Positions 14,039 to 57,271 of a DNA stretch of 64,000 nt are shown piece after piece. The stretch lies in the NCBI GenBank assembly GCA_963848965.1, contig CAWKFG010000004.1:224001-288000 (forward strand), in the 5' to 3' direction. Source of the DNA: an uncultured bacterium (GTDB taxonomy: Bacteria > Babelota > Babeliae > Babelales > Babelaceae). The stretch's first letter is position 1. Every line of letters begins with the position of its first letter. The notes beneath the pieces were generated by a model, which saw nothing but the letters and a program-made list of their open reading frames with translations, was not told the origin of the DNA and made no database searches. A program made the position numbers and the translations under genes.

Positions 14039-15357
14039 TACATAATAGTTGGCAAGGTAAATTTAAAGGGAGCTTTTTTTGGATACAGTATAGAAACTAT
14101 CTCACGAATACTTAATCTATCAACAATAGAATAGAGATCCCATATTGATATAACACCATTATTAGCAGTGCTCAACATATACCGTCCATCTGGGCTAAAG
14201 CATAACGAAGAAATACCATCGTAATGAACATTATAATCTTTAAGTTCAATCAAATCATTCTTTATCTTCCTTGCTATAAACACAGTATTGTGTAAAGAAC
14301 TTGCCGCTATATAGTTATTTTGTGGATGAAGTGCAATACAGGAAACAGGTGGCCAAATTATACCGTAACCGCAATAAGATACAGCTCCATACTCATTATC
14401 TTTGGTAGCATAGACCTTTATCGCCCCGTTTTTATAACCTACTATAGCTTCTCTACCTCCCGGGGTAAAGTTCACAGCAGTGATAGCTCTTTGACTGCTC
14501 TTTGCAAGCAAATGAGTAGCTACAAAATTCCCTCTCCAATTTATAAGTACTCCTGCATACTGATGGTAAAGTTCGTTACGGCCACTATCATATCCTACAA
14601 GCAGTTGTTTACTTTGAGTGTGAAATACTGCGCAAGTGAGGTAAATATTCCTATGTTGCGGAAAAAATCCTAGCAAATTACTTGTATTTGTACATTGCCA
14701 GGTAGTGGGTGACCATGTGCGCATAGTAAAATCTTTAGAAAAAGAAAAAAATCGAGTAATTCCTGATGAGTTATATTCAAATGCCACAGCTATAACAGAT
14801 TGTGTATGTCCTCGTAAAACTGCAAGACATTTATTTTCGCTTATATCCCACACAGCAATAGTTGCGTCCTTAGAACCTGTAAGAGCATATTTACCATCTC
14901 TGCTAATAGTCAAACAGGTAATTGGTCCTTTGTGTGCTTGCAATGTTTGCGCTTGCATAGTACTTTTGTTAAGGACATATACATTACCATCCTCCGCTCC
15001 TAAAACAATAAAATGTCCATTGGGCGTAAATGACGAACAAGTAAAGGTAGTTACATAAGTAAGGCCCGGTAGAGTAACTTGCGCTAAAGTTGGCATATGT
15101 GATGAGCCTTTAAAAAGAGCGTGATAATAGTTCTTAAAAAAATAGTTACGAAGGTTGTTTTGCACACCTGCATCCAAAGCCTCTAAACTTTTTAACAACA
15201 ATTCTTGTTTCTTAAACGATGCTTGTTTCAATAATGTATCAATGGTAGAGCATGACGACTGTACTAAAGACTTTACATGCGACTGTGGGTCCATTGCTTT
15301 AAGACCAAAGAGAGGCATGAACACTAATAGGGTTATAAAAATATTTTTAAACATCAT
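14038..15357 (-). CDS. Secreted WD40-repeat protein
   Basis: AHKGPITCL..GSKDATIAVWD, GHTQSVIAV, FSPDGRYM..IWD; signal peptide. Confidence 0.9.
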   Translation of the reverse strand: MMFKNIFITLLVFMPLFGLKAMDPQSHVKSLVQSSCSTIDTLLKQASFKKQELLLKSLEALDAGVQNNLRNYFFKNYYHALFKGSSHMPTLAQVTLPGLTYVTTFTCSSFTPNGHFIVLGAEDGNVYVLNKSTMQAQTLQAHKGPITCLTISRDGKYALTGSKDATIAVWDISENKCLAVLRGHTQSVIAVAFEYNSSGITRFFSFSKDFTMRTWSPTTWQCTNTSNLLGFFPQHRNIYLTCAVFHTQSKQLLVGYDSGRNELYHQYAGVLINWRGNFVATHLLAKSSQRAITAVNFTPGGREAIVGYKNGAIKVYATKDNEYGAVSYCGYGIIWPPVSCIALHPQNNYIAASSLHNTVFIARKIKNDLIELKDYNVHYDGISSLCFSPDGRYMLSTANNGVISIWDLYSIVDRLSIREIVSILYPKKAPFKFTLPTIM

Positions 15358-18997: not shown

Positions 18998-20921
<1,924 letters not shown>

Positions 20922-28834: not shown

Positions 28835-30148
28835 ATGAATAGTATTAAGAAAATGTTACTTATTTTAGTAACTTTAGCATGTGCAGTTCCGCTAGGAGCA
28901 TTACCTATACGCAGCTTAAAAAATGTAGGCAATAGTTGTTTTATAAATGCCACAATTCAATGTCTTTCCCACATTGATAGCATGGCACTCTCTATACTTT
29001 TTGAAAAAGATGATTACTACAAGAAAAAATCGCTTGCAGCTCGTTATCGAAAACTTCTTAAGGAATTAAATAGTGAACAAGCGAGTGATAATAAAGTAAA
29101 GAAGCAGCTCAAAAAATTCTGTTCACAAAGTTGGGAAACTCTCGGTGTAAGAAAATATAGCCAACAGGATGCTGCAGAGCTTATTGATACTCTTTTTAAT
29201 CATATAACTGACTACGATATACAAGATACAGTTAAAGATACGTTGCCTTTCTACCCAGGCACTTATCAACCACAAACAATGCTGTCGAATCTCTTTTTCT
29301 CATGCGTTCATTCAATTCTTACGCCATTAGGACTCTTTGCACTTCCTTCTGTAAAAACAGAGCCTGTTAGTATGTTAACTATCCCATTTACACCTAAAGC
29401 TCTTACGTTAGAAGACTGCTTATCTGCTTATTTTATGCCAACAAAGCTTACAGGAAACGAAAAAATAACATACTTACCAGGCATTCGTGTAGATGCTCTG
29501 AAACGGCTTGCACTTAAGCATACTTCAGAATATCTTATTATACGACTTAATAGAAATAAGTTTACTGTTGAACATGATAGAAAGAACAACAAAGTATTTG
29601 TATCTACTAAGCTTTCTGAACCTGTAAGTTTTCCACTTACTCATCTTGATGTATCGCCATATTTTGATCTTGGATGTAAGCAAGAAGGCTATAAATATAA
29701 TCTTATATCATTTATTGTTCATGTTGGAAGCAGTGCATCATCAGGGCACTACACTGCTTATGTAAAAAATGAGGATGGATGGCATTATTGCGATGATAGA
29801 TCTATCATTAAAATAACAAATAAACAAATAGAGGACATTGCAAAGCGCGGATACGCCATTGACCCTCTACATTTGTTATTTCCAGAAAGTCAGCCACAAG
29901 AGAATATCAAAACAAGTAAACGACAAACGCCTGTTCTGTTTTTCTATGAAAAAGAGCCACGAGCGACTGATGAGTCAAAAGTTCCAGAGATAGCTTCACA
30001 TGAAGAAGTACTCAAGATAGCAAAAGATAAAGAGAACTCTCCCTCTATCATCCAAGAGACAGAGAAAAAAGTCTCAACAGAAATTCAGAGAAATACTCGT
30101 GATGTAGATTTGTTCACTTCTGATGAAGACTGTATAATACTCAATTAA
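28835..30148 (+). CDS. Secreted ubiquitin-specific protease (peptidase C19/USP)
   Basis: Cys box LKNVGNSCFINATIQCL, QQDAAE, His box VHVG..SGHYTAYVK..W..CDD; signal peptide. Confidence 0.9.
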   Translation: MNSIKKMLLILVTLACAVPLGALPIRSLKNVGNSCFINATIQCLSHIDSMALSILFEKDDYYKKKSLAARYRKLLKELNSEQASDNKVKKQLKKFCSQSWETLGVRKYSQQDAAELIDTLFNHITDYDIQDTVKDTLPFYPGTYQPQTMLSNLFFSCVHSILTPLGLFALPSVKTEPVSMLTIPFTPKALTLEDCLSAYFMPTKLTGNEKITYLPGIRVDALKRLALKHTSEYLIIRLNRNKFTVEHDRKNNKVFVSTKLSEPVSFPLTHLDVSPYFDLGCKQEGYKYNLISFIVHVGSSASSGHYTAYVKNEDGWHYCDDRSIIKITNKQIEDIAKRGYAIDPLHLLFPESQPQENIKTSKRQTPVLFFYEKEPRATDESKVPEIASHEEVLKIAKDKENSPSIIQETEKKVSTEIQRNTRDVDLFTSDEDCIILN

Positions 30149-30881: not shown

Positions 30882-33746
30882 CTAGAAAGCATGTCCTAAT
30901 GTTAAGAACCATGCATAGCGCCTATCTTTTTCATCACGTTTTTTCCACTTCCATCCTATATCAAATCGTATAGGGCCAATGGGTGTTGCACAACGTAATC
31001 CAAACCCCGTAGCGCCCAGCCATTTGTGTGCTTGAATATCTGCAAACTTGTTTTGTGCTAGTACACCCATATCAGTAAAAACTACTCCACTTAGCCACCT
31101 ATACAAAGGAAATCGAACTTCTGCATTAACATTAACCATTGATTTGCCTCCGATCGGTAACCAACTGCGCTCATGCTTACTTGTTACAAAAGAGTTAAGA
31201 GGAGGAACCATATCAGTTTCATAACCACGCAATGAAGTAGCTCCTCCTAAGTAAAAGCGTTCTGTCGGCAATATAGTAGAAAATTCTGCATTAAAGATAT
31301 GACCACATCTAAACCGTAGTGCTCCAATAATCGATTTATACAAAGGATAAACAAACGACTGTTCTAAAAGAGCTTTTACAAAAAAGCCTTTGTGAATACG
31401 CAGTGGAAACATACCACGTAGCGAAAGAAACGTAAAAGTACCTTTGGTAGGATCTAATTTATTATCAAAACTGTCCCACAAAAATGATGATTCAAGATAA
31501 AAGTATGGTTCTCGCTTATCGATTAATTGTGGTTTAAATTGAATAACAGGTGCAAGCCGCTCTGAAAGCCCAGAAAGCTTACTCAACTCGAATCCTACAG
31601 TACCACTTACCTGACCTTGCGGATATGCATGAGTGACACTTACTGAAAGGCCATCATGCGCTTCTTTGTATAAGCGCTCTTTACTTCCTCCCCCAATTGG
31701 CTGCTCGTACCGATCAGTGTAAATTTGATAGACTGATCGTAAAGGATAGTTACATGTCCATGGTATCTCATAAGAAAAAGCAGCATTACGTGTATACCGA
31801 GTAAGATCTGCATCCAATCGTAACTGATCTGCAATACCACAAGGATTTTTCCACAAAAAAGAGCCTCCTACTCTATAGGTAGTACCAGAGAGATTGGTAA
31901 AACTTGTGCTCATTTGCTGGAACCCAAAGCGCGTTCGTATCTCAAAGGGATCGTCTTCTACCACCTTTAGGATCATAGTTTTAGTACCCTCTTCCGTTGC
32001 AACATTATACGGAGCAAGTGAAACAGATTCAAACATGTTAAGTGCTTTCAGCCGCTTAATAGTTTGATCAATTTTTTCTTTACTCCAGGGATCCCCTTCT
32101 TTGTATTGTAGTTCACGCAAAATAATATCTGACTTTATCTTACCAGTACTTGCAAGCACCGTTTTTCCAAAGCGCACTTTTGCTGCATGATCAATATGCC
32201 ATACAAGCATAGTACCATCTTTTTGAGTGACAAATTCAGGATGAACAGCTACATACAAACTACCCCTTTGCTTAAAGTATTTGAGTAACCATTGTCGCTG
32301 TTCTTGTATCAAATGTACATCAAATGGCCGTGGCTTTTGTAGACTCGCCCACTCTTTAAAAGGCTCTTCTTTTAGTAGGTGAGGATATCCTGCTATAGTA
32401 ATACCAGTAAGCATTCTTCTTTGACCAAGCTCTAGTGTAAGCACAAGTTCGTATTGCATATCTTCTAAAGGAACAAAATCTTGTTTTACTACTTTAAAAT
32501 CCCAGAATCCTTGCTTAATATGTTCAGTGCCAAACTTATCAAGTGCGTTCGCAAGAGCTGCTGCATCAAAATAGGGCTGCTTTAAAAAATCTGTAAACGT
32601 ACGCTTTATAAGAGTTTGTGTAGCAGGTGAGGTATCTCCTTTAACGCTTACAGAAGAAACGCGCATACGAGGCCCTTCATTAATAACAAAGTAAAATCGC
32701 TCTGATTCTTCTTTCCATTCAACTTTTACCTGCCAAAAACCCTGTTTTTTATAAAGAGTACTAATATCTTCAGCAAGTAATGAAGGAGGTATAAGAAGAG
32801 CAGAACTTCCTACCACTAAAAGCTCATTAAGAAGATGCTCAGAAGAGTAAAAGTGATTACCAAAAAATACAAAACGTTTTTTTTGGTACAGCGTAATAGT
32901 AAATGAAAGAGCTACAGTCTTATCTTTTTCATGAATCTTTTTTGTAAGCTCTATTTTAGGATTAAGATATCCTCTATGCGAAAGGTAGGTTCTTACTTCT
33001 TGTATATGGTGTTCAATAAGCGATCGAGAATAATAATTAGTTCGTAATTTATCTAAAGATGCTCGTACACGCTCTTCTACTTTTTTACATTCTTCATTAC
33101 ACTGAGCTTCATGTACTTTAACAGAGACAGCACTATCATTGATAATAAAACGATCTGTATTCTCTAGATGTAATGTTACGAGTACTCGTTTTGTATCTTT
33201 GTCATAGGTAATATAATCAGTAACTTTTGCATGTAAATAGCCATTTTTTTGAAGTTCTTGTTCAACTTTTACAAGTGAATGCTGATGCTTAGCAAGGTCA
33301 AAAGGCTCGCCCGGCTCCAAGAGGTAATAATGCTCATACCTATCTTTGCCGACGAGCCATCCTTTAAATTTGACCTTAAAAAATGTCCATGCACTTTTAA
33401 GAGCGAAAGTAAGTTCTTTACCTTGAGCACCATCAACAGCTGTAATAACTACTGTATCAAACTTATTCTTTCTTTTTAAATGCCAACAAGCTCGCTTTAT
33501 ATCTTCAGGAGTAATCCACGATTGCTCTTTAAGAGAGACTAAATACCGAAGCTCTTTTTCTGCCATCGGTATATCTGAGGTAAAGATAAGCTTACTCAGA
33601 AAAAATCGTTCTTTAAAACTGGTGTCTACAAGCGAAAACTTCTCATCTGCTGTAGGTAATAAGCTAATATCTATACTGCTTGTAAAAAGCATACAAGAGT
33701 AAAGACTTATGCCTAGTATACAAAGTATTCTATAACGTACTACCAT
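30882..33746 (-). CDS. Omp85 family (BamA/TamA-like) outer membrane protein with POTRA domains
   Basis: POTRA repeats (GYL.A.V, INEGPR), FYLGGATSLRGY, TPIGPIRFD, terminal LGHAF. Confidence 0.9.
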   Translation of the reverse strand: MVVRYRILCILGISLYSCMLFTSSIDISLLPTADEKFSLVDTSFKERFFLSKLIFTSDIPMAEKELRYLVSLKEQSWITPEDIKRACWHLKRKNKFDTVVITAVDGAQGKELTFALKSAWTFFKVKFKGWLVGKDRYEHYYLLEPGEPFDLAKHQHSLVKVEQELQKNGYLHAKVTDYITYDKDTKRVLVTLHLENTDRFIINDSAVSVKVHEAQCNEECKKVEERVRASLDKLRTNYYSRSLIEHHIQEVRTYLSHRGYLNPKIELTKKIHEKDKTVALSFTITLYQKKRFVFFGNHFYSSEHLLNELLVVGSSALLIPPSLLAEDISTLYKKQGFWQVKVEWKEESERFYFVINEGPRMRVSSVSVKGDTSPATQTLIKRTFTDFLKQPYFDAAALANALDKFGTEHIKQGFWDFKVVKQDFVPLEDMQYELVLTLELGQRRMLTGITIAGYPHLLKEEPFKEWASLQKPRPFDVHLIQEQRQWLLKYFKQRGSLYVAVHPEFVTQKDGTMLVWHIDHAAKVRFGKTVLASTGKIKSDIILRELQYKEGDPWSKEKIDQTIKRLKALNMFESVSLAPYNVATEEGTKTMILKVVEDDPFEIRTRFGFQQMSTSFTNLSGTTYRVGGSFLWKNPCGIADQLRLDADLTRYTRNAAFSYEIPWTCNYPLRSVYQIYTDRYEQPIGGGSKERLYKEAHDGLSVSVTHAYPQGQVSGTVGFELSKLSGLSERLAPVIQFKPQLIDKREPYFYLESSFLWDSFDNKLDPTKGTFTFLSLRGMFPLRIHKGFFVKALLEQSFVYPLYKSIIGALRFRCGHIFNAEFSTILPTERFYLGGATSLRGYETDMVPPLNSFVTSKHERSWLPIGGKSMVNVNAEVRFPLYRWLSGVVFTDMGVLAQNKFADIQAHKWLGATGFGLRCATPIGPIRFDIGWKWKKRDEKDRRYAWFLTLGHAF

Positions 33747-33814
33747 ACTCGTTCCTCTATTTTTCAGTACTACGCTTCTAGTATACAGCAAATTAAGAAA
33801 TGAAGCTTCTGCCT

Positions 33815-34193: not shown

Positions 34194-34227
34194 AAAAAAA
34201 AGCACCGTGGCATAATCCACGGTGCTT
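34194..34227 (-). terminator. Intrinsic terminator of the ATAD3-like gene
   Basis: AAGCACCGTGG / CCACGGTGCTT stem with a T tract on the minus strand. Confidence 0.85.
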
Positions 34228-34244: not shown

Positions 34245-35801
34245 TTATGCAGCTGCAGCTGCGTGCGGTTTACCAAATCCTGCAATTCCTGTTTTCTTCT
34301 GTTCTATCTTTGTGTTAGCAACATCTTGAACAATATCTGCAGTTAATGCTCCACTCTCAGTTGCATATGCTCGTGATTGCCACTCAAGAACAAGCTGAGA
34401 AATTTCACGCCCAACAAAGCCTTCAAGCTTTTTATTCAGAGCGTCTACTGCATCTTCATTTAATGCATTTGGTTCAATCACAATAGCTTTTGGTGCTTCT
34501 TTTGAACCAAAGAGACGACCTAAGAATGAAGTTGCTTGTGGCTGCAATTGAGATGGATCTTCTAAGTACTTATGAATATATTGTTTCAATATATGCTTAC
34601 GCTGCTCTGAAGCTGGTGCATCAATTTTTATTTGTTCAGCACAACGGCTTAAGAATGCACCATCAAGATCTTCTGGACGATTGGTCAACGCTATTACCAT
34701 AAAGTCACGAGTCTCTGTTCCAGTGTAGGTTAGAATATGAGTGAGTAGCTTACGAGTATTTTCACTTAAATTCTTATCTCTGTTTGCAAAAAGAATTTCT
34801 GCTTCATCAATAATAATCATAAGTTTCTTTGCAGACTTTTTAGCAAATTCAAAAAGCTCGGTAAGTTGGCTTAAAGCTAAATCAAGGCTCATGGTATCTA
34901 AAGCAGATGCAGCAAAATAAATATAGTCAAGACCACAGTTGTATGCTAATCGTTTTGCTAACATAGTTTTACCAGTTCCTGGAGGACCATAAAAAAGAAT
35001 ATTCTTTAAGTATGCTCCATTTTTTATGGTATTTTTTAACGATTCTGCAAGTTTAGAAACACGCTCTTGTAATTTTGGTTCTAGAATAACATCTTCTATC
35101 TTTCCTTGCGGCGGCTTTATACCATAGATAAAGTTACCCATTCTTTCACGCCATGTAAGCAATGATGTTTCTTGAGCCAAACGAGGTATTCTGTACCAAT
35201 GGCTAATCATTTGAGCAGCAAGAGCAGTACCATGTTTTGCACCAAATACACCGAGTGCTAAACCAGTACCTGCTAATACGAGCAATCGCGCATTCTTAGG
35301 CTCAGTACATGCTTTAATAACGTTATTGACGTTATCCCTCATTGCTTTTGCATTTTCCTTTGCATGAATACTTGCTTTTATAGCAGTTTTTTGCTTTTCT
35401 GTTTCTGCTTTTCGTTCATCTTCTTCCATTCTAAAAACACCTGCAATTCCTTCTTTTGCTACATCAAACAGTGCAGCTCCTGCTTTATCCCAGCGTTCAT
35501 TAGAATTTAAATGTGTTTTCTGATATTCAGCCTTCATCTTCTGAATTTCAATACGTTCTTCAGGAGTTTGAGCATCTCTCAAATCAGCATCAAACTTACG
35601 CATCTGTTCTTCGTGATTGCGCTTTCTTTGCTCAGCTGCATCTCGAATATTTCTGTCCATATCTTTTGCAAATTGAGCAGTTTCGTTAGCCCACCATTCA
35701 TGGGCATTAAAGTTCTTGTGGCCTCTCATACCATAAGCAGGGGCAGAGAGTAAGGGAATACTAAAAAGTAGCAAGTACTTTTTCTTACATAATAGTTTCA
35801 T
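34245..35801 (-). CDS. ATAD3-like membrane-anchored AAA+ ATPase
   Basis: Coiled coil, TM segment LAGTGLALGVFGAKHGT, PRLAQETS, NILFYGPPGTGKT, IIIDEAE, TNRPEDLD, GFVGREISQL, AYATESGALT. Confidence 0.88.
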   Translation of the reverse strand: MKLLCKKKYLLLFSIPLLSAPAYGMRGHKNFNAHEWWANETAQFAKDMDRNIRDAAEQRKRNHEEQMRKFDADLRDAQTPEERIEIQKMKAEYQKTHLNSNERWDKAGAALFDVAKEGIAGVFRMEEDERKAETEKQKTAIKASIHAKENAKAMRDNVNNVIKACTEPKNARLLVLAGTGLALGVFGAKHGTALAAQMISHWYRIPRLAQETSLLTWRERMGNFIYGIKPPQGKIEDVILEPKLQERVSKLAESLKNTIKNGAYLKNILFYGPPGTGKTMLAKRLAYNCGLDYIYFAASALDTMSLDLALSQLTELFEFAKKSAKKLMIIIDEAEILFANRDKNLSENTRKLLTHILTYTGTETRDFMVIALTNRPEDLDGAFLSRCAEQIKIDAPASEQRKHILKQYIHKYLEDPSQLQPQATSFLGRLFGSKEAPKAIVIEPNALNEDAVDALNKKLEGFVGREISQLVLEWQSRAYATESGALTADIVQDVANTKIEQKKTGIAGFGKPHAAAAA

Positions 35802-35819: not shown

Positions 35820-37157
35820 TTATGCCGTTTTTCGTGTTTGAGGTTCTGGCACAGTATTTTCTAGATCCATATAGCTCTTATAGAGATTATATGCCTTCCA
35901 GCCAGCAATACATGCTATTGGAAAAGCGATAAAGAATGAAATTCGCGCATTGGCACTACTTTTTGCAGTCCACCATTGACGTAAAAGCCGAGCTGGCATA
36001 AATGAAATTGCATCATGACCTTTGGCTACATAGTCTTTAATATCTTTTTCTATTGCTTTTATCTCTGCCTCTGGTTTAAAAGACTCTTTTGCTTTCTTAT
36101 AGTCCTCAAGTATCTTTTTAAGTTCTTCCATATGATTTACTATATACTCTGCCCATAGTGCATTACTGCCATTATCAAAGAGTTTTACAGCCCATCCAAG
36201 ACCAATGAGCTCAATAATAGCACGGCCAGTAGGTGAATAAATCCATTCAGGTATGCCCCACTTAAACCGTTTATTAAACCATCCCATACCTGACACAAAG
36301 CTGTCTGAGCGATCACGTACAAAAGCAAGAAAAGGGTTTGAGCCCCATTGGAGCCACTTTAAAATCGATACAATAGAAATAGGCATAGAGTCAGATTCTA
36401 CTACTTCACCATATTCATTTTTTTCATAGACCTTACCATATCTGTTATCCCAGATAGATATATCTTCTAAAAACTTACTTTTAAGCAGCGTGGTAGCTTT
36501 CTCTACACCAAAGCGAACCATTAAAGGAACTATTGTCTCTTGTTTAAAGGGATTGTATTTGATTAAGCTATGATACTTTTGAATATAGTTTCGTAAAGGA
36601 TCTGCTAAGCTACTTTTCTTTCTTCTATGATTTACGAGCATCTTACCTAACATACTCTTTTCATCATACTCTTTTTCAAAAGCATCTTGTGCTTTTTGTA
36701 CTTTTTCAAGCTCATCAAGTATCTGCTGATAGTGCTCTTTAACGTGCCCTGTTATTTTAGCAATTCTGTTATTATGAATTCGTTTATAAAGAAAGATATC
36801 GCTTACAATATTTGCAGCAAAGAAGCTTCCTTCAACTGCATCCTTATTATAGATCCCAAACCGGGGTATAAATTGTGAAGAGCTTGCAGCTGTTGCCCAT
36901 AAAAGCGTATTCTGCCATCTAATTTTATTGTCTCGAGCTTCTTCTTTCTTTTTTTCCTGCTTTTCCTGACGTGCTTCTTCTTTGCGTATAATCTCTTCAG
37001 GATTTGCTTCTTCCAAAATAGTTGGTATTTCTCGTATAGTAGCATCTATCTCAGCTTGCTCTTCTGGCGAAAGCTTTCCTTGTGTATTTTCCATTGCCTG
37101 TACAGAAGACAGGATACACAATAGACTACTGACTATACCTATTTTTGCTCTCTTCAT
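35820..37157 (-). CDS. Hypothetical secreted coiled-coil/membrane protein, co-oriented with the ATAD3-like gene
   Basis: GGAGG RBS, signal peptide, charged helices, C-terminal TM; 18-bp gap to the next gene. Confidence 0.7.
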   Translation of the reverse strand: MKRAKIGIVSSLLCILSSVQAMENTQGKLSPEEQAEIDATIREIPTILEEANPEEIIRKEEARQEKQEKKKEEARDNKIRWQNTLLWATAASSSQFIPRFGIYNKDAVEGSFFAANIVSDIFLYKRIHNNRIAKITGHVKEHYQQILDELEKVQKAQDAFEKEYDEKSMLGKMLVNHRRKKSSLADPLRNYIQKYHSLIKYNPFKQETIVPLMVRFGVEKATTLLKSKFLEDISIWDNRYGKVYEKNEYGEVVESDSMPISIVSILKWLQWGSNPFLAFVRDRSDSFVSGMGWFNKRFKWGIPEWIYSPTGRAIIELIGLGWAVKLFDNGSNALWAEYIVNHMEELKKILEDYKKAKESFKPEAEIKAIEKDIKDYVAKGHDAISFMPARLLRQWWTAKSSANARISFFIAFPIACIAGWKAYNLYKSYMDLENTVPEPQTRKTA

Positions 37158-37277
37158 AAAATATAGTTCCTCCATTCTAAAAAAACCCCCATAATTTTAA
37201 TGCTTTTTCTATGGTACCGGTTCTCCATTTTTTTATCAAATGGTTTGGCAAAAGGCACATTTTACTGAGAGATCTTG

Positions 37278-37844
37278 CTAACTTTGCAAAGTGATGCCCT
37301 TTATAAGGTATTCAATGAGCTTTGCTCTGCGTAGATGATCACGAGTAGACTCTTTAGAAAAACCACTACCAAATATAGCCATTCCCATCGCTGACGATAT
37401 AACAAATGCGCTCGCAGCTAGACTCGCCATCAGTTTTTCACGTTCAAGTTCTCTTTCCTCCTGCTCAAGGTGCGCTCTTACACTACGAGATGCTATTGTT
37501 TGAGCAATTTTGACAATCTCTATCTTTTCTGGAAGAGTCCTCGTACGTCTACCTTCAAAGTAAGCTCCCATAGCAACTCCTGTTATAGCAAGAAGAGCTC
37601 CGCTTACAAGTTTAACTATATCCTTTGGATGAAACATTCGTGCTTGTTTTTCACCTAATTTCACCGCCTTACGAGCATAGTCCAGGAGTTCTTCTTTTTC
37701 AGATGCAGTAAACTCACCTTTAATAAACCGTTCAACTTCTTCAACAGAATTATTTTTAATTGCATCAATAAAATTTTTCTGGATAGAAAAAAGTGAAACT
37801 GTTGTAAACAACATAGAAAGATATATACCTATAGTATATTTCAT
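37278..37844 (-). CDS. Hydrophobic-hairpin paralog family member
   Basis: Signal peptide; FIDAIKNNSVEEV; two TM segments; LRRAKLIE. Confidence 0.7.
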   Translation of the reverse strand: MKYTIGIYLSMLFTTVSLFSIQKNFIDAIKNNSVEEVERFIKGEFTASEKEELLDYARKAVKLGEKQARMFHPKDIVKLVSGALLAITGVAMGAYFEGRRTRTLPEKIEIVKIAQTIASRSVRAHLEQEERELEREKLMASLAASAFVISSAMGMAIFGSGFSKESTRDHLRRAKLIEYLIKGITLQS

Positions 37845-37938
37845 CGTATCCTTTATAGTAATTACCCCTATTCCGTTCAAACATTAGAGAGGTAGTGCAA
37901 GAATTACATAGTTCTCTACCTAATAGAATGCTCGTATC

Positions 37939-38436
37939 TTATTTTTCTGGAGCTTCTTGAACGCAACTTTCAATTTTGCATGCTTTTTTTAAAGCTCGTT
38001 GAGCGCTATACATAGTCCATCCACGATGTGTTTGTTGACATCCTACATACGATAGACCACCTCCTCCTGCTGCTAATACGAGCCCAAGGAGAGTAAGCGA
38101 AAGTTCGTCACCCAATTCAAGTAAAAACATTACAGATCCTACAACGGTCATTGGAAGTCCTACGTTTAGTAATAAAAATAGACCACCTACAAACCGTACC
38201 ATATCAGCTCCACTGCTAAAGAGGCTCTTGGTCTTATCTTTATACATTTTTACAGTATCGCTAATTTCTTTTAAAAGCAGCTTCTTTTGCTCTTTAGTAA
38301 GCGGACTTTGCTGCTTTACTAATTTTCTTACTTCTTTTACATCATTATTATCTATCGCACTAACAAGTGAATCTACGCAAAACGTAGATGCTGTAAAGCA
38401 AACAAACAAAGCAGCAGGTATAGAACGTATTTTCAT
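37939..38436 (-). CDS. Hydrophobic-hairpin paralog family member
   Basis: LVSAIDNNDVKEV, PLTKEQK, SLFSSGAD, bilobed hydrophobic region, ALKKACKIE. Confidence 0.75.
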   Translation of the reverse strand: MKIRSIPAALFVCFTASTFCVDSLVSAIDNNDVKEVRKLVKQQSPLTKEQKKLLLKEISDTVKMYKDKTKSLFSSGADMVRFVGGLFLLLNVGLPMTVVGSVMFLLELGDELSLTLLGLVLAAGGGGLSYVGCQQTHRGWTMYSAQRALKKACKIESCVQEAPEK

Positions 38437-38461
38437 AAATTCCCTACTAACATTATCACAA

Positions 38462-38496
38462 AAAAGAAAGCCATAAGAATCTTATGGCTTTCTTTT
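38462..38496. terminator. Terminator (near-perfect palindrome)
   Basis: AAAAGAAAGCCATAAGA-A-TCTTATGGCTTTCTTTT. Confidence 0.75.
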
Positions 38497-38516
38497 GTCT
38501 TTTAACATACTACTTA

Positions 38517-39074
38517 TTAGAGTACCGGCATTTCTTCGATATGTTTTTCTATTTTTCGTGCTTTTTCTAAAGCGCTATGAGCACTGTTCATTGACCAGCC
38601 TTTAGAGAAGAGCCACCATGAAAGACCTGCTATAACTGCGTTTGCTCCAGACCACAGAAAGAGCGTTCTTTTTACTAATTTTATGTCTTCTGGGTTATCC
38701 AAGCCTTTCTTATGAAGCTCTCTGCGGAACTCTGGGTTATTTTTATAGAGCGAGTCTACAGCTAATCCAATGCCAAAATTAGCAAGTGCCCCTAACGTTG
38801 CAGAAACTCCAACGATACCGCCAACTCCTACTTTTAGCAAGTCGTAGCCGCTTCTAAAGAGACTTTCTGTTTTTTCCTTGCACTCTCTAGCAATTTCATG
38901 AGCTGTAGCAAGATATTTAGCCTTCTGCTCAAGGGTCAAAGGTTCATGATGCTTTGCTAAATGTTTTACTTCATCAACATTTTGTGCTTCAATAGCATCC
39001 ATAAGCTTTGACGTACCATTCAGCGCTATAGTACTTGTAAGCACTAAAGCAGAAACTAATAAACTGTATTTCAT
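38517..39074 (-). CDS. Hydrophobic-hairpin paralog family member
   Basis: LMDAIEAQNVDEV, PLTLEQK, SLFRSGYD, ALEKARKIE. Confidence 0.75.
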   Translation of the reverse strand: MKYSLLVSALVLTSTIALNGTSKLMDAIEAQNVDEVKHLAKHHEPLTLEQKAKYLATAHEIARECKEKTESLFRSGYDLLKVGVGGIVGVSATLGALANFGIGLAVDSLYKNNPEFRRELHKKGLDNPEDIKLVKRTLFLWSGANAVIAGLSWWLFSKGWSMNSAHSALEKARKIEKHIEEMPVL

Positions 39075-39117
39075 AAAATACTCCTTAAAGATTAAACTAA
39101 TTACAAACTTTTGTTAC

Positions 39118-39621
39118 CTATTCTTTAAATACTGCAGCATTCACCAACTCTTCTATTTCATAAGCTTTATGTAAGTTACCAAGAGCGCTTGAGCGTAATG
39201 TTCCAAGATATACTTGCCATGCTCCCCCTACTACCATACCAGCTCCTAAACAAGCTTTTGCAGCAGACCATAAGGTAGCAGTTGTTTTTCCTTGTATTCC
39301 TTGCCACAATGTTCCGAATACTCCTCGTAAGCCCCACCCTAAGCCTAGGACTGCAGCTGTTCCTCCAAATCCAATTCTCATAAGATCAGTTTCACTTCTA
39401 AAAATAGACTCTGATTTGCTTTTATATGTTGAGATCAACTCCTGAACTTCATGTAAAAGCTGCTTCTTTTGCTCTTTAGTCAAAGCTGTTTCATTTTTTA
39501 AGAGCTCCTCTACCTGTTTTACATTGTTAGATTTTATAGCACTAAGCAGCTGATCTATACTAAAAGTTAAAGAAGTGTTTACAAGCATGAAAGCAGTTAG
39601 GAAAAAACGGATCTTGTTCAT
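39118..39621 (-). CDS. Hydrophobic-hairpin paralog family member
   Basis: LLSAIKSNNVKQV, ALTKEQK, SIFRSETD, Gly-rich TM segments, LHKAYEIE. Confidence 0.75.
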   Translation of the reverse strand: MNKIRFFLTAFMLVNTSLTFSIDQLLSAIKSNNVKQVEELLKNETALTKEQKKQLLHEVQELISTYKSKSESIFRSETDLMRIGFGGTAAVLGLGWGLRGVFGTLWQGIQGKTTATLWSAAKACLGAGMVVGGAWQVYLGTLRSSALGNLHKAYEIEELVNAAVFKE

Positions 39622-42970: not shown

Positions 42971-44407
42971 ATGGATACAACTTCTATTCGTGTGCGCTTT
43001 GCGCCATCGCCCACCGGTTTTATGCATTTAGGAAACGTACGAGCGGCACTCATAAATTATTTATTTGCACATCAAAAGAGCGGGACATTTATTTTACGCA
43101 TCGAAGATACAGACGCCCAAAGAATGGTCGATCCTATGGGTGCTCGTATTATGGAAGATATTTCTTGGCTGCATCTAACGTATGACGAAGGTCCTCAAGT
43201 AGGAGGTCCTTATGAACCCTATTATCAATCACAACGTACACAGCTCTATACTCGCTATCTCAACGCAGCCATAGAAAAAAATCTTGTTTATCGTTGCTTT
43301 TGTACTATAGAAGAGCTTGAAAAGAAGAGGCAACGCCAGCTTGCACTAAAACAGCCACCTCGGTATGATCGCTGTTGTCTCCGCTTCAGCCCTGAAGAAA
43401 TTTCACAAAAACTTTCTTCTCATATCCCTTTTATCTGGCGCTTCAAGCTTGATCATGCTAAACAAGTTTCGTTTTACGAACTTGCTCGCAAAACTATGCA
43501 TTTTGAGCTTAAACATTTTTCTGATGTACCAGTAACGCGAGAAGACGGTAGTTTCACCTTTCTCTTTGCCAACTTTATAGACGATGTACAAATGAAAGTA
43601 TCGCACGTCTTTCGGGGTGAAGACCATCTGAGCAACACTGCAGTACAAGTAGCTATGTACGAAGCATTCAATGCTCAAGTACCAACTTTCTGGCATCTGC
43701 CAATTATTACTAACACCGAAGGCAAAAAACTCTCAAAACGTGACTTTGGCTTTTCACTAACAGATCTTAAAAATGAAGGTTATTTACCCCAAGCTATCTG
43801 CAATTACATTATCCTCATGGGTGGCACTTTCCAAAAAGAAATTATGACACTCAGTGAACTTACTCAAGCTCTCAACTTTGACTCTATAACTTCAACGAGC
43901 CAAATAAAATACGATGTAGAGAAGCTCAGATGGGTTAATCACCAATGGATTATGCGATATGATACCAACGAACTCGCCAAACTCTGCAGACCGTACCTTG
44001 ACTCTGCATACTCCACCGTTAACACTCTCTCTGATACTCAATTAGCTACGCTCATCTCCTACATCCAGCCAGAAATTATTACCCTCAAAGAGAGCATCGC
44101 TGCCCTCTCATTCTATTTCACTGTACCTATACCAGAGCCCACTCTCTTTGCAGAGTACCATCTTGCATTGTACCAGCCCCTTTTGCATACACTTATACCA
44201 GAAATTCGTCCTCTGCTTGCACAGCCTGAACAAGCTGTTAAACACTTACAAGCTGCATGTAAAGCCCAAGGAGCTTCTATACGCGAGGTCTTCACTCTTA
44301 TACGCATAGCGCTCACTGGAAAGCCTCAAGGTCTCGGCATCAAAGAGCTATTTGCTCTGCTTGGCCCTGACGAGTCCTACAGGCGCCTAACTACGCTGCT
44401 TAGCTAA
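42971..44407 (+). CDS. gltX: Glutamate--tRNA ligase
   Basis: RVRFAPSPTGFMHLGN, LRIEDTD, RGEDH, KLSKR; start MDTT at 42971. Confidence 0.96.
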   Translation: MDTTSIRVRFAPSPTGFMHLGNVRAALINYLFAHQKSGTFILRIEDTDAQRMVDPMGARIMEDISWLHLTYDEGPQVGGPYEPYYQSQRTQLYTRYLNAAIEKNLVYRCFCTIEELEKKRQRQLALKQPPRYDRCCLRFSPEEISQKLSSHIPFIWRFKLDHAKQVSFYELARKTMHFELKHFSDVPVTREDGSFTFLFANFIDDVQMKVSHVFRGEDHLSNTAVQVAMYEAFNAQVPTFWHLPIITNTEGKKLSKRDFGFSLTDLKNEGYLPQAICNYIILMGGTFQKEIMTLSELTQALNFDSITSTSQIKYDVEKLRWVNHQWIMRYDTNELAKLCRPYLDSAYSTVNTLSDTQLATLISYIQPEIITLKESIAALSFYFTVPIPEPTLFAEYHLALYQPLLHTLIPEIRPLLAQPEQAVKHLQAACKAQGASIREVFTLIRIALTGKPQGLGIKELFALLGPDESYRRLTTLLS

Positions 44408-44411
44408 TTGC

Positions 44412-44817
44412 TAGGGGCTTTGCCCCTATAACCCCAGCAGGGTCACAACCTTGCACCCTCTGGTATCTGCTCAGAGCTAACGCTCCTCGCCCGTCTTTTT
44501 AAAGCAAAAAATCATGCTGATTTTTTGCAATAGCAGTCCCTACGGGAATCTCCGTTCCAGGCGGAACGTGCCTGTTCCGATGACATTGAGTACGAATAAC
44601 CCTTTGGTAGTCTCATATCAACGATGATTCTGTAAACATGGTGTCGTCAGCGAGGGTGTGTTCCACCCTCGATGGAGACTCGCGTAGCGGCGTGCAACTG
44701 CAAAAAATCGGCACGATTTTTTGCTCTAAAAGAACCAGCGCAAGAGCGTAGCTCTGAAGCTAGAAAGCGGGTTGCAAGGGCGGGCCCTTGCCGGGGGTGT
44801 TGGGGGCAGAGCCCTTA
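44412..44817. repeat. ~405-bp imperfect palindrome made of two inverted, diverged multi-hairpin units
   Basis: The left arm (GGGGCTTTGCCCC..GCAAAAAATCATGCTGATTTTTTGC..) aligns with the reverse complement of the right arm (..GCAAAAAATCGGCACGATTTTTTGC..GGGGGCAGAGCCCTT). Confidence 0.85.
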
Positions 44818-44846
44818 ACCTCACAAGCATTGCTTCACGGGAAGAA

Positions 44847-45101
44847 TTAAACAGTCTCAGCAGGATCAAGGAGGCGATTGGGTAATTTAACAAAGTCTGT
44901 TATGATGCCTTCATGCAGGTAGTACTGCATAAGAGAAAGAAAGATGTGTTCTTGGGCTGGAGGTACAAAAAACTCGAATGTGCGTGTTTGCTTGTTGAGT
45001 GTCCGGTCGAATGCGACGTGCTCAAAGCTGCGGAGCGTAGCTACTAGAAACCAGGTATCTTTTTCTTTTACATGAGCTTGATAATAAACACAATACTGCA
45101 T
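44847..45101 (-). CDS. Small protein, DUF4911-like
   Basis: 84 aa; FLVATLRSFEHVAFDRTL..FEFFVP. Confidence 0.65.
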   Translation of the reverse strand: MQYCVYYQAHVKEKDTWFLVATLRSFEHVAFDRTLNKQTRTFEFFVPPAQEHIFLSLMQYYLHEGIITDFVKLPNRLLDPAETV

Positions 45102-45181
45102 AAAATGGATCTTAATTTTTTAAAAATTTAGGGTAATATAAGAGCATACTTTAGTATAAGGGAGTTTTTTTTAAAGAGGAA

Positions 45182-46393
45182 GTGAGCATGACAAAAGATA
45201 ATTCACACAACAAGATTGGTTTATTAACTGCAACGATTATATGCATGAACTCAATGATAGGAGCAGGGATTTTTACTACGCCTGCACAGCTAGCACTTAC
45301 TGCAGGTCCTGCTGGCATTATAACATATCTGTTTGTCATTGCTGCTGTGCTTTTTATGGCACTATCATTAGCACGAGTATCAGCGTTATATCCGCAGGAA
45401 GGGTCTTTTTATGTGTATGCTAAGGCCTGGGGTGGCCACACTATGGGCGTTCTGGCTGCAGGTTCTTATGTTGTTGGAGTTTTAATTGCATTGAGTTTAA
45501 TTACGCAGTTAGCCGCTGGTTATTTGCATGAACTTGTACCTGCATTGAGTGTAAATATGTGGGGCATAGTACTTGTAAGTTCAATTGTAGGGCTCAATGT
45601 TATTGGCGTACGAATGGTCCAAGTTGGACAATTTATTTTGCTCGGTTGTACGTTATTTGCACTTTTAGGAACTACGGTGCTGGGATTAACACACATAAAT
45701 TGGAGTAATTTAACGCCTTTTATGCCGAGCGGCTGGAGTTCTCTGGCGGGTGCTGTTCCTACAGCAATTTTTGCCTTTTTTGGTTTCGAGTCTGCTGCTT
45801 CTCTTTTTAGTGTTGTAAAGAATCCTGAGAGGAATGTTCCTCGAGCATTAACGTATTCTATTTTGGCGGTAGGTGCCATCTATTTAGCGTTTATTTCCTC
45901 AATTATTTTATCAATTCCGAAAGAAGCATTTACGAATGCCCGAATGCCTATCTCAGAAGCGATTATAAAGCTGTTTCCTCAGTATGCTTGGCTTGCAAAA
46001 GCAATTGGTATAGCAATTCTTACAGGGTTCTTGGGAGTACTCCAATCTATGATGTACTCGGTAAGTGCTCTTGCATTCTCGTTCTTTAAATTATTGCATA
46101 ATAAGTATGCTCGAGCAATTACACGATCTGAATATGGTTTTCAGGCAATTATAGTAGGTGTAGGAGCTTTAGTACTACTGAACTTCTTTACTATTAAAAG
46201 CTTAGGTCTCTTCTTTAATCTTACTGCAGTAGGGGTAGTATTTGCGTATGCCTCTTCTATTGTGACTCTATGGCTCAAAGGTCATGATAAGACGATAGGA
46301 CAGAAAATAACAACGTTCTTAGGTCTTGCAACTGCAGCAGGGATATTTATAATTGCCTTTAATGGGTTACTAGGAGAGCTTTTGAAATCTTAA
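45182..46393 (+). CDS. APC family amino acid permease
   Basis: MIGAGIF, AFFGFE, VKNPERNVPRA; about 12 TM helices. Confidence 0.9.
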   Translation: MSMTKDNSHNKIGLLTATIICMNSMIGAGIFTTPAQLALTAGPAGIITYLFVIAAVLFMALSLARVSALYPQEGSFYVYAKAWGGHTMGVLAAGSYVVGVLIALSLITQLAAGYLHELVPALSVNMWGIVLVSSIVGLNVIGVRMVQVGQFILLGCTLFALLGTTVLGLTHINWSNLTPFMPSGWSSLAGAVPTAIFAFFGFESAASLFSVVKNPERNVPRALTYSILAVGAIYLAFISSIILSIPKEAFTNARMPISEAIIKLFPQYAWLAKAIGIAILTGFLGVLQSMMYSVSALAFSFFKLLHNKYARAITRSEYGFQAIIVGVGALVLLNFFTIKSLGLFFNLTAVGVVFAYASSIVTLWLKGHDKTIGQKITTFLGLATAAGIFIIAFNGLLGELLKS

Positions 46394-55150: not shown

Positions 55151-57271
55151 ATGAAAATAAAAATCATTATAATAAGCACTTTTTTTCTCTTTTCGCTTGT
55201 AGCTATGGAACCACAGCCAAATCCCATCACTTCTAAAGCAACAAGCATTAATCACGCAAATACCTCTTTGACTATGCTTCTTGTTCATCATATAGCACAG
55301 CAGCTTGCATCATTCATATTACATGAGAAAGCCCGAACATTTGTTAAACCGGTACCTTTTTTAGATAGTAAAGCAAGCAGTACTAATGAGAACTTTCAAG
55401 AGCAGCTGAATAAGATAAGAAATATTTATCCTGAACTTTATAATAAAATTCGTCTTATGCTTTCACTTTATATAATTATAAGTAAAGCAACAAAAGACGA
55501 GAAACATGCTCTCCTTTTAACACTCTGGCAAGATAAAAGCAGTCGCTTTATACAGTTACTCATACATGAACTTCTTTCTCATACTTCTTTACAAGAGATA
55601 ACAGAACTTTTTCCATTAGCGCATACCATCGCACCCATACAACCTCCTTTTGCACAAGATAAACTCTCTCTTATGCATGTAGCTTCAATGCTTGATGATG
55701 CTTCTGCTGTTGAGTGCTTACTTTCATTTAATAGCACATCTTATGATAGAACTTCGGTGACAGAAGACACACCATGCCATTATGCAGCCCGCTATAAAAG
55801 CACTACAGTATTTTCTTCCTTGACAACTATTCAGATGACTACAAAAGCTAATAAACAAGGAGTTTACCCACTTACACAAGCTCTTGTAAACAATAATAAA
55901 GAAGGCGCTCTGTTTCTTATGAATCTTCCTGAATTTAAAACAGATCAAGCCCTTATTGACAATGCTTTAGAACATCTTCTGAAGTATGGCAATAATCATG
56001 AAATAGCACGGCTCTTTTCTCAAGAACTTAAAAAAACTCCATTTTATAAAACCCTACACTCGTGCTTAAAATTTTTTCTTGCTATAGCAGCCCATGCTAA
56101 TGATCTTTTTGCTTATCCTTCAAAGGATTCACAAAAGCCGCATGATAAACAAATACCCTCGCTCTACAAATTTGCTCTACAACATGTTAATTTTCGCGAT
56201 CCTACATGTGGATTATGCCCACTCCATATAGCAGCTGCATTTAATAATCTAAAAGCTGCAGAATTTTTAGTATCACATGGAGCTCATTTAGAAGCAGAAA
56301 CGTCTCAACATTTTTTTTCATTTGTCTATCAAGCAACACCATTACTTATAGCCGCTCGAAAAGGTCATTTTAAAATGGCTCACTATTTGCTAACTCAGCG
56401 CAAAGCACATACATGTTCCTCTTCTGGCATAAGCGTTCTTCATTGTGCAGCAATGAGCACAAATTTAAAGCTTATCAGATCTCTTCTTAACTATAATAAA
56501 CAACTAAAAGATATACAGTATCAAGGCGCTACGCCACTTCATATAGCAGTACTTACAGAAAATGTGCCCCTTGTACAATTATTTCTAGAGCATACCTTTG
56601 ATAAAGAGACTACAACAGATACAGGTCTTACTGCTCTTGCAATGGCGCTTCAATTTAATGAACATCCAACTATCACCCAAATGTTGCTAGAAAGCGGTGC
56701 ACTCATTCCTGAGCTCATTTTTGAAGAATCGCCACTTTGCTGTGCAGTTACTAAGAATTGGTTACCTATTGTTAAACTTCTCGTTCATCGAGGCATTGCA
56801 GTAAATAAAGTTAATCTTCTAGGCCTTACTCCCCTAGCAATTGCCGCACAAAATCGAAGTAAAGAAATTTTTGATTTCCTGCTCTTACATGATCAAACTA
56901 CAGATCTTTTACAGACTGCTCTTGAAAAAGAAGATACAAATATACTTTCTTTCTTACTTGATTACAAACTCACTAGTGAAAACGTTAATTTTCTGTGCAG
57001 AGCCATTACTCTACAGAAACAAGCAATTGCTAATCTTCTCATTGACAGGTATTCACACTTACTGGTATTAATGAATGAACAGGGTGAGACCCCGTTGCAT
57101 ACTGCAGTCTTAAGCAAAAACTATACAGTATTAGAGCGCCTTATAGCACAGCCATGCTTAATAAGTCTTCATAATACAAGAGAACAAACTCCCTTAGACC
57201 TTGCTCATGGTTTAAACGATGATAAAAGCATTACATTATTAAGTACCGCAGCTAATAAGTCATGTACTTAA
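55151..57271 (+). CDS. Large secreted ankyrin-repeat protein
   Basis: Many TPLH/TPLL ankyrin repeats; signal peptide. Confidence 0.92.
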   Translation: MKIKIIIISTFFLFSLVAMEPQPNPITSKATSINHANTSLTMLLVHHIAQQLASFILHEKARTFVKPVPFLDSKASSTNENFQEQLNKIRNIYPELYNKIRLMLSLYIIISKATKDEKHALLLTLWQDKSSRFIQLLIHELLSHTSLQEITELFPLAHTIAPIQPPFAQDKLSLMHVASMLDDASAVECLLSFNSTSYDRTSVTEDTPCHYAARYKSTTVFSSLTTIQMTTKANKQGVYPLTQALVNNNKEGALFLMNLPEFKTDQALIDNALEHLLKYGNNHEIARLFSQELKKTPFYKTLHSCLKFFLAIAAHANDLFAYPSKDSQKPHDKQIPSLYKFALQHVNFRDPTCGLCPLHIAAAFNNLKAAEFLVSHGAHLEAETSQHFFSFVYQATPLLIAARKGHFKMAHYLLTQRKAHTCSSSGISVLHCAAMSTNLKLIRSLLNYNKQLKDIQYQGATPLHIAVLTENVPLVQLFLEHTFDKETTTDTGLTALAMALQFNEHPTITQMLLESGALIPELIFEESPLCCAVTKNWLPIVKLLVHRGIAVNKVNLLGLTPLAIAAQNRSKEIFDFLLLHDQTTDLLQTALEKEDTNILSFLLDYKLTSENVNFLCRAITLQKQAIANLLIDRYSHLLVLMNEQGETPLHTAVLSKNYTVLERLIAQPCLISLHNTREQTPLDLAHGLNDDKSITLLSTAANKSCT

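Follow-up and report, generated by a model that had tools for sequence, protein, structure and literature searches.

Does this intracellular bacterium encode a genuine relative of ATAD3, a protein of the mitochondrial inner membrane, and if so, what does the relative do and where did it come from? These questions are raised by a gene on the reverse strand (34245..35801) of a 64,000-nucleotide stretch of DNA from an uncultured bacterium of the family Babelaceae, phylum Babelota (assembly GCA_963848965.1, contig CAWKFG010000004.1, positions 224,001 to 288,000). The whole stretch is referred to here as the window, and the 518-residue product of the gene, which has an ATG start, as the window ATPase. 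An initial annotation, made from the sequence alone, described the product as a bacterial homolog of ATAD3 with an export signal and saw in it either a host-derived effector or a clue to the origin of ATAD3. The homology is borne out over most of the protein, and the gene proves to be one half of a conserved pair. The function and the direction of descent can be assigned with less confidence, as described below.

Domain architecture of the window ATPase

All of the motifs quoted in the initial annotation are present in the translated open reading frame (ORF), in the order given there. The first 24 residues (35730..35801, on the reverse strand like every other feature of this gene) form a leader, MKLLCKKKYLLLFSIPLLSAPAYG, with a basic n-region, a hydrophobic core and the residues AYG ahead of the predicted cut. 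It is Sec-type in appearance, and what stands of the signal peptide first proposed is a leader-like N-terminus, as judged by reading the sequence and by a crude hydropathy rule. Residues 25-170 (35292..35729) are predicted from AlphaFold2 helices to form a periplasmic helical hairpin. They are followed by a single glycine-rich transmembrane (TM) helix (residues 171-192; 35226..35291), which is placed by hydropathy and aligns with the TM helix of eukaryotic ATAD3. The sequence LAGTGLALGVFGAKHGT falls within residues 170-191, where the only 19-residue segments of the protein with a mean Kyte-Doolittle value above 1.2 are located.

The predicted cytoplasmic side of the protein begins with a juxtamembrane P-x-L-x-x-E-T-S motif, marked by conservation of P206, and a linker (residues 193-267; 35001..35225). 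This part includes PRLAQETS at residues 206-213 and EDVILEPKLQERV at 236-248. The AAA core (residues 268-394; 34620..35000) contains Walker A, Walker B, sensor 1 and the arginine finger, and its match to PF00004 (E = 1.4e-25) is the only specific one in Pfam; no peptidase domain is found among the Pfam matches. KNILFYGPPGTGKT occupies residues 266-279, IDEAE 331-335 and TNRPEDLD 373-380. The remainder (residues 395-518; 34248..34619) comprises the lid, with a low-confidence insert at about 415-445, and an ATAD3-type C-terminal tail, with EGFVGREISQLVLEWQSRAYATESGALT at residues 460-487.

An AlphaFold2 model built from a 40-row alignment has a mean pLDDT of 78.4, with values of about 94-97 in the AAA core and about 95 for core and lid together. 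In the part first read as a coiled coil, long helices span residues 33-75 and 80-131, pLDDT is about 80-90 at residues 60-100 of the hairpin, and a helix at 171-202 runs through the hydrophobic stretch. The best Foldseek matches of the AAA core are FtsH, p97, Rpt and Msp1. A comparison of 20 rows drawn from eukaryotes and the bacterial clades shows no variation in any group at Walker A, Walker B, sensor 1, the arginine finger or the lid arginine. Residues K278, T279, D332, E333, N374 and R386 are unchanged in 20/20 rows, as is P206, and G464 and R465 in the C-terminal tail are likewise invariant. Pore loop 1 lacks the aromatic-hydrophobic-Gly motif and reads LDTMS in the window ATPase. With the residues for ATP binding and hydrolysis intact, the window ATPase is judged to be a catalytically competent AAA+ member of the ATAD3 family. 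It probably assembles into a ring by analogy with other AAA+ proteins, with which the conserved arginine finger is compatible.

Homology to eukaryotic ATAD3

The initial annotation compared the protein with human ATAD3; ATAD3 sequences taken from databases are used here instead. Green-algal, fish, Theileria and Phytophthora ATAD3 proteins share one motif order with the window ATPase: a glycine-rich TM helix (ALALGVYGAREG), KPSLVRETS, D[IV]VL..L..RV, FYGPPGTGKT, IDEAD, ATNRP.DLD and EGFSGREI....Q..VY.S....LT. Alignment by BLASTP with a green-algal ATAD3 yields 37% identity over 330 residues, from residue 173 in the TM helix to residue 490 (E = 5e-65). A profile comparison by hhalign of 40 bacterial with 16 eukaryotic ATAD3 sequences reaches a probability of 100 and E = 4.3e-77 over 366 columns (query positions 140-509). 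Chance is far from sufficient to account for such matches. Homology spans from about 30 residues ahead of the TM helix through the C-terminus. The resemblance outside the AAA core that was first noticed by eye, in the TM helix, the juxtamembrane motif and the C-terminal tail, is therefore upheld by BLASTP, by hhalign and by the trees described below.

Several of the shared features are specific in their arrangement. In both the window ATPase and eukaryotic ATAD3, a single glycine-rich TM helix is followed directly by P-x-L-[VA]-x-E-T-S, with equal spacing to the AAA core; both have a C-terminal tail of the form G-F-x-G-R-[ED]-I ... Y ... L-T and a non-canonical pore loop 1. The features of the ATAD3 family that are found in the window ATPase are its AAA affinity, the single TM helix with its juxtamembrane motif, and the C-terminal tail, where the alignments extend to residues 490-509 of 518. 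The coiled-coil N-domain PF12037 is not among them, and the portion of ATAD3_N that is shared consists of its last positions (about 229-265 of 265), which cover the TM helix and the P-x-L-x-x-E-T-S stretch. On this evidence from alignment, the window ATPase is almost certainly a true but partial relative of ATAD3, homologous from the TM helix to the C-terminus and without ATAD3_N. It also differs from eukaryotic ATAD3 in having a leader, in the length of its N-terminal part and in being encoded with a partner gene in a bacterium rather than acting in a mitochondrion.

Database searches place the same boundary between bacterial and eukaryotic members. A search of 5.8 billion proteins with the window ATPase returned 756 proteins at E ≤ 0.001 among 8000 scored candidates, and the best 120 were examined. 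Those at ranks 2-96 have PF00004 and lack PF12037, and the six named proteins among them come only from Candidatus Babela massiliensis or Candidatus Dependentiae. At ranks 97-120, 24/24 proteins carry PF12037 and PF00004 (E = 3e-56 to 9e-45), with sources that include green algae, Phytophthora and protist transcriptomes. The eukaryotic ATAD3 matches are 28-38% identical across 61-91% of the window ATPase. An exhaustive HMMER search of 1.84 billion representatives finds 386 proteins at E ≤ 1e-30; PF12037 is present in 26 of the 87 scanned representatives of 900 residues or fewer among the HMMER matches listed, the first at E = 1.8e-48.

Other AAA proteins are far more distant. The best solved AAA domains outside ATAD3, p97 D1 and D2, score only about 55-57 bits each against the window ATPase, and its best NCBIfam scores, all below threshold, are to FtsH, CdvC and CDC48. 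When a fish ATAD3 is compared with a 2026 copy of the PDB, no ATAD3 chain is found and the best match is CDC48 (3e-26). According to a 2026 paper, the ATAD3 domain has no detectable similarity to any other subclass of AAA+ proteins (PMC13249166). That paper and PMC3790746 describe ATAD3 from animals, plants, algae and apicomplexans and as absent from fungi, and the text of PMC13249166 contains neither 'bacteria' nor 'prokaryot'.

A bacterial branch of the family

How far does this protein extend among bacteria? Queried with the window ATPase alone, the 261 genomes of the window's phylum yield a match in 45 cases at E ≤ 1e-40. A 20-row family profile raises this number to 120/261 at E ≤ 1e-35, including 87/189 high-quality genomes and 68/145 genera. 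Matches are distributed unevenly over genome families, with 34/35 genomes in f17, 11/12 in f18, 16/40 in f1 and 30/80 in f21, and copies per genome reach at least five (five candidates were scored per genome). Besides the window ATPase, two paralogs are encoded in the genome of the window, one of 663 residues on contig C5 (1.7e-80) and one of 517 residues that matches less well (3.4e-41); its ordinary AAA proteins score 6e-31 or worse with the family profile. These two paralogs lie at 60000-77000 of C5 with a third AAA paralog of 503 residues, amid leader-bearing ORFs. ATPases of this kind form a large, previously undescribed bacterial branch of the ATAD3 family that is widespread in the window's phylum, probably Dependentiae (TM6).

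Three clades can be recognized within this branch. Clade B1 contains the window ATPase and loci of genome families f1 and f21. Clade B2 contains the 663-residue C5 paralog and loci of f17 and f18. Clade B3 was assembled from metagenomic proteins with leaders and weak PF12037 matches. The idea that B3 represents another phylum was dropped, as its members occur in family f13 of the window's phylum: genome G111 encodes a protein with 47% identity (E = 7e-112), which falls inside core B3 with a support of 100 (FastTree), and G109 encodes one with 41% identity. By the same crude hydropathy rule, leader-like N-termini are present in 21/21 full-length rows of B1, 17/19 of B2 and 11/13 of B3 (49/53 bacterial rows in total), but in only 7/23 eukaryotic rows. 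Median lengths ahead of the TM helix are 174, 176 and 222 residues in B1, B2 and B3, compared to 244 in eukaryotes; the shorter B1 part is not detectably ATAD3_N.

The closest named relatives are proteins of Babela massiliensis and other Dependentiae that are annotated simply as 'AAA family ATPase' (P0005, P0029, P0025, P0045, P0055 and P0085). They have the B1 architecture and are 36-49% identical over most of their length, with no substantive difference from the window ATPase, which is a member of the same group. No relatives were found on viral contigs, and no sequencing run, of RNA or otherwise, was listed as containing the sequence. In the literature searched, which excluded subscription journals and supplements, no published description of bacterial ATAD3 homologs and no paper on both ATAD3 and Dependentiae was found, and 'atad3' is absent from the Babela and TM6 genome papers. 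The only notice found of an ATAD3 similarity in the bacterial family is in the automatic protein naming of JGI.

Some further observations concern more distant or unusual proteins. In NCBIfam, members of B3 and B2 score best with the model of the anti-phage ATPase IteA (NF042959, 68-78 bits), although far under its cut-off and with a match that begins ahead of the AAA core; among curated prokaryotic AAA proteins, IteA may be the closest relative. Giant proteins of 1500-2100 residues with 4-6 tandem AAA domains (P0121, P0126, P0132, P0135 and others) rank high by summed score. The contig around the B3 protein P0232 (locus L169; 21.7 kb, GC 0.36) contains runs of similar ORFs of 330-540 residues, and nearly all of its ORFs are leader-like at the start.

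A conserved partner gene

The gene immediately upstream of the window ATPase (35820..37175, reverse strand) encodes a 451-residue protein with a leader, an all-helical body and a C-terminal membrane helix. Only 18 nt separate its stop codon from the start of the ATPase gene. Homologs found with this single sequence occur in 22/261 genomes at E ≤ 1e-5, and 22/22 of these genomes also have an ATAD3-like match. At 17 loci chosen on the partner, each of the 19 partner ORFs is directly followed on its own strand by an ATAD3-like ORF, with gaps of less than 40 nt in 15/19 pairs and tandemly duplicated pairs at two loci. A less biased count comes from the converse selection: among 29 loci chosen on the ATPase alone, 23 have a partner ORF immediately upstream as detected by a 19-row partner profile, whose source genomes overlap in part with those of the loci. 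Included in the 23 are 10 of the 14 loci L026-L039, which come from families f13, f17 and f18 and are mostly B2-type. No partner-like neighbour stands beside the three C5 paralogs. The ATPase and its partner constitute a conserved, tightly spaced two-gene unit, and this pairing of an ATAD3-like ATPase with a helical membrane protein is new here.

A terminator-like hairpin (34200..34227, reverse strand) with an 11-bp stem, seven G-C pairs and a T-run lies 18 nt past the ATPase stop codon, and no hairpin is found between the two genes, in favour of the pairing. Since two terminator-like sites are found in the region compared to 2.4 expected from shuffled sequences, position and strength are the sole argument for this one. 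Ahead of the partner gene, a weak promoter-like site (37211..37239, reverse strand) agrees with 9/12 consensus positions; eight such sites are found compared to a shuffle mean of 11.3, so the site is a consensus match only.

The partner itself resembles nothing that was searched. It has no Pfam or NCBIfam family. Its AlphaFold2 model is all-helical (pLDDT 84.6, pTM 0.72) and has no Foldseek match in the PDB at E ≤ 0.001, a best VIA-align Z of 6.4 that is inside the noise for helical models, and no usable match in the ESM Atlas. Its profile shows no hhalign similarity to eukaryotic ATAD3, and only the leaders align with the bacterial ATPase. In the 5.8-billion-protein set the profile recovers four proteins, in a search whose saturated word prefilter makes it silent on relatives beyond the phylum, and no eukaryotic relative was found in this weak search. 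A complex prediction using alignments of ATPase residues 25-240 and partner residues 28-451 returned a score of 0.00 and no verdict, which is evidence neither way.

Phylogeny and origin

Trees were calculated from the region between the TM helix and the C-terminus (about 345 columns). For FastTree, 206 ingroup sequences were thinned to 116 by removing rows at least 62% identical to a kept row. Hand-picked sets of 81 ingroup and 11 outgroup sequences, and of 40 and seven, were used for a quick and a careful IQ-TREE analysis, respectively, both with LG+C20 PMSF. The outgroup consists of prokaryotic CDC48-like, FtsH-like and multi-AAA proteins, including single domains of giant AAA proteins. Some of these loci were reused from a scan of contigs outside the phylum that relied on a Walker A pattern and gave generic AAA genes, which makes it uninformative on wider distribution; Atlas clusters labelled Bdellovibrionota and Chlamydiota are a lead only. 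Rows were labelled as eukaryotic by PF12037, and 13/28 of them have named sources (fish, mite, fly, Theileria, Phytophthora, diatom, green algae and MMETSP/EukProt); the sample contains no named Amoebozoa or Discoba. Of two rows that were first grouped with eukaryotes but lack PF12037, one falls inside B2 and the other at the base.

The ATAD3-like clade is separated from other AAA proteins with supports of 100 or 100/100 in three trees. Eukaryotic proteins with PF12037 form one clade (98 in the 92-row tree, 100/99 in the 47-row tree), and no bacterial clade falls inside sampled eukaryotic ATAD3. Supports are 99 and 97/96 for B1 and 100 for core B3. Clade B2 is recovered at 100 by FastTree and at 100/100 in the careful 47-row tree, which does not include L002, the paralog from the window's own genome; in the 92-row quick tree it is not one clade, as its core has a support of 93 and L002 and P0269 branch separately at the base.

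In each of the three rooted trees, the eukaryotes branch as one clade among bacterial clades that are paraphyletic, and the order of deep branches shifts from tree to tree: B1 is basal in the FastTree and careful trees, and B2 in the 92-row quick tree. Approximately unbiased (AU) tests were run on the 47-row set. Monophyly of the bacteria is not rejected, since the best constrained tree is 9.4 log-likelihood units worse (AU p = 0.333). Joining B1 to the eukaryotic subclade that contains algae and stramenopiles, a grouping picked with the tree already in view, lowers the log-likelihood by 24.6 units and is not rejected either (AU p = 0.079). The tests are formally compatible with a single ancient transfer in either direction and with a later transfer into B1. 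The suggestion that the gene is a clue to the origin of ATAD3 is not supported in the form in which it was put: eukaryotes branch among bacterial clades in rooted trees, but one bacterial clade is also compatible with the test.

The bacterial members found are all in a host-dependent phylum rich in eukaryote-like genes, which leans the interpretation toward an old transfer from eukaryote to bacterium. The preferred reading is that the gene was taken up once, long ago, from a eukaryote and was then duplicated within the window's phylum, although the data do not decide. The opposite direction is unlikely: ATAD3 would then be of bacterial origin and would have entered the eukaryotic stem, earlier than the last eukaryotic common ancestor, as an envelope-spanning ATPase of a Dependentiae-like parasite lineage, with its N-domain in the periplasm and its ATPase domain in the cytoplasm. 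If true, it would have been installed in the mitochondrial inner membrane in unchanged orientation, and the source of an essential mitochondrial protein would be a bacterium outside the Alphaproteobacteria.

Predicted topology and proposed role

A leader followed by one hydrophobic helix predicts an N-out/C-in protein, whether the leader is cleaved or not. The leader would carry the N-terminal helical hairpin of about 145 residues across the inner membrane, and the glycine-rich helix would then stop transfer, leaving the hairpin periplasmic and the ATPase on the cytoplasmic side, which is where ATP is available. Human ATAD3A is described, in the accessible text of PMC13249166, as having its ATPase in the matrix, its TM helix in the inner membrane and its N-terminal part outward. 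With the matrix equated to the cytoplasm and the intermembrane space to the periplasm, the predicted orientation of the window ATPase is the same as that published for ATAD3. Most of the partner would lie in the periplasm, with a short tail in the cytoplasm, and the two proteins may form an ATP-driven inner-membrane complex that acts on the bacterium's own envelope. Candidate tasks are membrane organization, contact between the inner and outer membranes, and the handling of membrane proteins or lipids. This proposal as a whole, an ATAD3-family ATPase and its partner working as an inner-membrane envelope complex, is regarded as probable with modest confidence. A more specific version, in which the module replaces Tol/Ton energizers driven by the proton motive force, was dropped; the genome has a MotA/ExbB/TolQ homolog.

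Several observations weigh against an envelope complex. The domain check proposed in the initial annotation came out negative, in that no match to PF12037 (DUF3523, ATAD3_N) is found in the window ATPase, and a cut-off as loose as E ≤ 10 for its first 253 residues does not bring one up. Residues 25-168 reach an hhalign probability of only 0.24% against the eukaryotic ATAD3 N-terminal profile. With no detectable similarity to ATAD3_N, a functional analogy with the outward part of ATAD3 is unsupported. The B3-type loci L031/L189 (one G109 locus) and L169 show no partner, and L188 is without upstream DNA. The family is patchy as well as multi-copy, with 141/261 genomes lacking a match at E ≤ 1e-35, and such a pattern is common in host-interaction families of these bacteria and less so in core envelope machines. 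Eukaryote-like neighbours are present in the window, including a leader-bearing ubiquitin C-terminal hydrolase (UCH), ankyrin and WD40 proteins and a PP2C phosphatase. A published Dependentiae isolate remodels the host mitochondrion; according to the accessible text, it wraps a mitochondrion around itself and 44% of its proteome has signal sequences (PMC6561590). The same text mentions a mitofilin-like coding sequence, and the words AAA and ATPase are absent from it.

The patchy distribution, the neighbours and the mitochondrial remodelling all favour a host-derived effector, as do the homology to ATAD3 and the leaders on both proteins. Such an effector would use its leader and a further secretion step to leave the cell, insert into host mitochondria or contact sites and mimic or disturb ATAD3 there, with the partner as a co-effector or translocator. 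This is rather unlikely, however, because a protein in which a hydrophobic helix follows the Sec leader is normally arrested in the inner membrane, and an ATPase passing through the periplasm for export would serve no purpose there. A membrane anchor is also present in the partner, which is tied to the ATPase in a conserved pair, the outward ATAD3_N part that mediates the contacts of ATAD3 is not detectable, and beyond the leader no secretion signal was identified. Of the effector with an export signal that was originally envisaged, the leader stands; export alone does not make an effector, and a leader with a stop-transfer helix predicts an inner-membrane protein. It is this orientation, set by the leader and the single membrane helix, that favours an inner-membrane envelope complex over a secreted effector.

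An ATPase anchored in the inner membrane could instead work on the cytoplasmic side in quality control or extraction, like FtsH without its protease or like Msp1, with the hairpin and partner merely anchoring or regulating it. The fold and the nearest solved relatives (FtsH, p97, Rpt and Msp1), the sub-threshold NCBIfam scores and the membrane anchor beside an AAA ring all point this way. Like FtsH/AFG3-like proteases, which are among its best structural matches, the window ATPase is predicted to have an inner-membrane anchor N-terminal of a classical AAA domain and an N-domain in the periplasm or intermembrane space. In contrast to FtsH, it has no M41 peptidase, and it has one TM helix after its leader where FtsH has two TM helices. 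It scores 65 bits with the NCBIfam FtsH model (cut-off 600) and only 35 bits with the genome's own FtsH-like protein, and FtsH-like proteins fall in the outgroup (FastTree). The degenerate pore loop 1, which lacks the aromatic-hydrophobic-Gly threading motif, argues against a classical unfoldase, and the conserved periplasmic domain and largely periplasmic partner suggest action outside the cytoplasm, making a quality-control role quite unlikely. Least probable by far is that there is no ATAD3 relative here at all, but a generic AAA protein with chance motifs or a eukaryotic contaminant. Pfam does give a generic AAA match only, yet the BLASTP and hhalign alignments cover 330-366 positions that include non-AAA parts, the nearest non-bacterial relatives all carry PF12037 and PF00004, clade support is 100/100 and close homologs are present in 45 related genomes. 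The gene is on an 872,875-bp contig of a 1.73-Mb genome in five contigs. Bacterial genes surround it (BamA/Omp85 with POTRA repeats, acylphosphatase, topoisomerase I, GluRS, tRNA synthetases, an ABC transporter and permeases), and GC is even across the 64 kb, at 0.34-0.39 in 2-kb bins with the sole exception of 44001-46000 (0.443). Neither of the outcomes named as refuting in the initial annotation, placement among generic bacterial AAA ATPases or a contaminating eukaryotic contig, is observed.

Other features of the window

Directly upstream of the partner gene are four tandem paralogs of 165-200 residues (37278-39621, reverse strand). They are 25-27% identical, share 21 invariant columns, and have a leader, a start of the form 'AI..N.V..V' and glycine-rich hydrophobic stretches; none has a Pfam family above threshold. 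Two genes downstream of the window ATPase, with the acylphosphatase gene between, is an unusually long BamA/Omp85 gene (30882-33791, reverse strand; 969 residues, TTG start) that encodes three POTRA stretches and an Omp85 barrel according to Pfam.

The eukaryote-like neighbours include a leader-bearing protein of 437 residues whose ubiquitin C-terminal hydrolase domain is of the eukaryotic type (28835-30148, forward strand; PF00443, E = 1.2e-36). Secreted C19 ubiquitin hydrolases are mentioned in the accessible text of the Babela genome paper. There are also a WD40 beta-propeller protein (14038-15357, reverse strand), a 706-residue ankyrin-repeat protein (55151-57271, forward strand) and an ankyrin-PP2C phosphatase fusion (58909-60360, forward strand).

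Elsewhere in the window, two tandem amidase-family paralogs of 481 residues are encoded at 3295-4740 and 4762-6207 (reverse strand; PF01425, E of about 1e-129 each). A 313-residue protein (19317-20258, reverse strand) matches just the C-terminal part of the class I methionyl-tRNA synthetase core (profile positions 266-390 of 391) and the anticodon-binding domain, and may represent a split or mis-started MetRS gene. No ORF of 120 residues or more is found at 44408-45181, and the bin of raised GC that contains this segment may hold RNA genes.

Implications

ATAD3 is essential in animals and Plasmodium and is linked to human mitochondrial disease, and its mechanism is unclear. The bacterial family offers a handle on a protein that has so far been studied in eukaryotes only, in the form of compact homologs for structural and enzymatic work. 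The partner is a defined genetic handle that may point to the task of the outward-facing side, and the family as a whole is a concrete data set on where ATAD3 came from. In Dependentiae, a phylum whose envelope and host-manipulation machinery is almost unknown, the biology gains a conserved two-protein membrane module.

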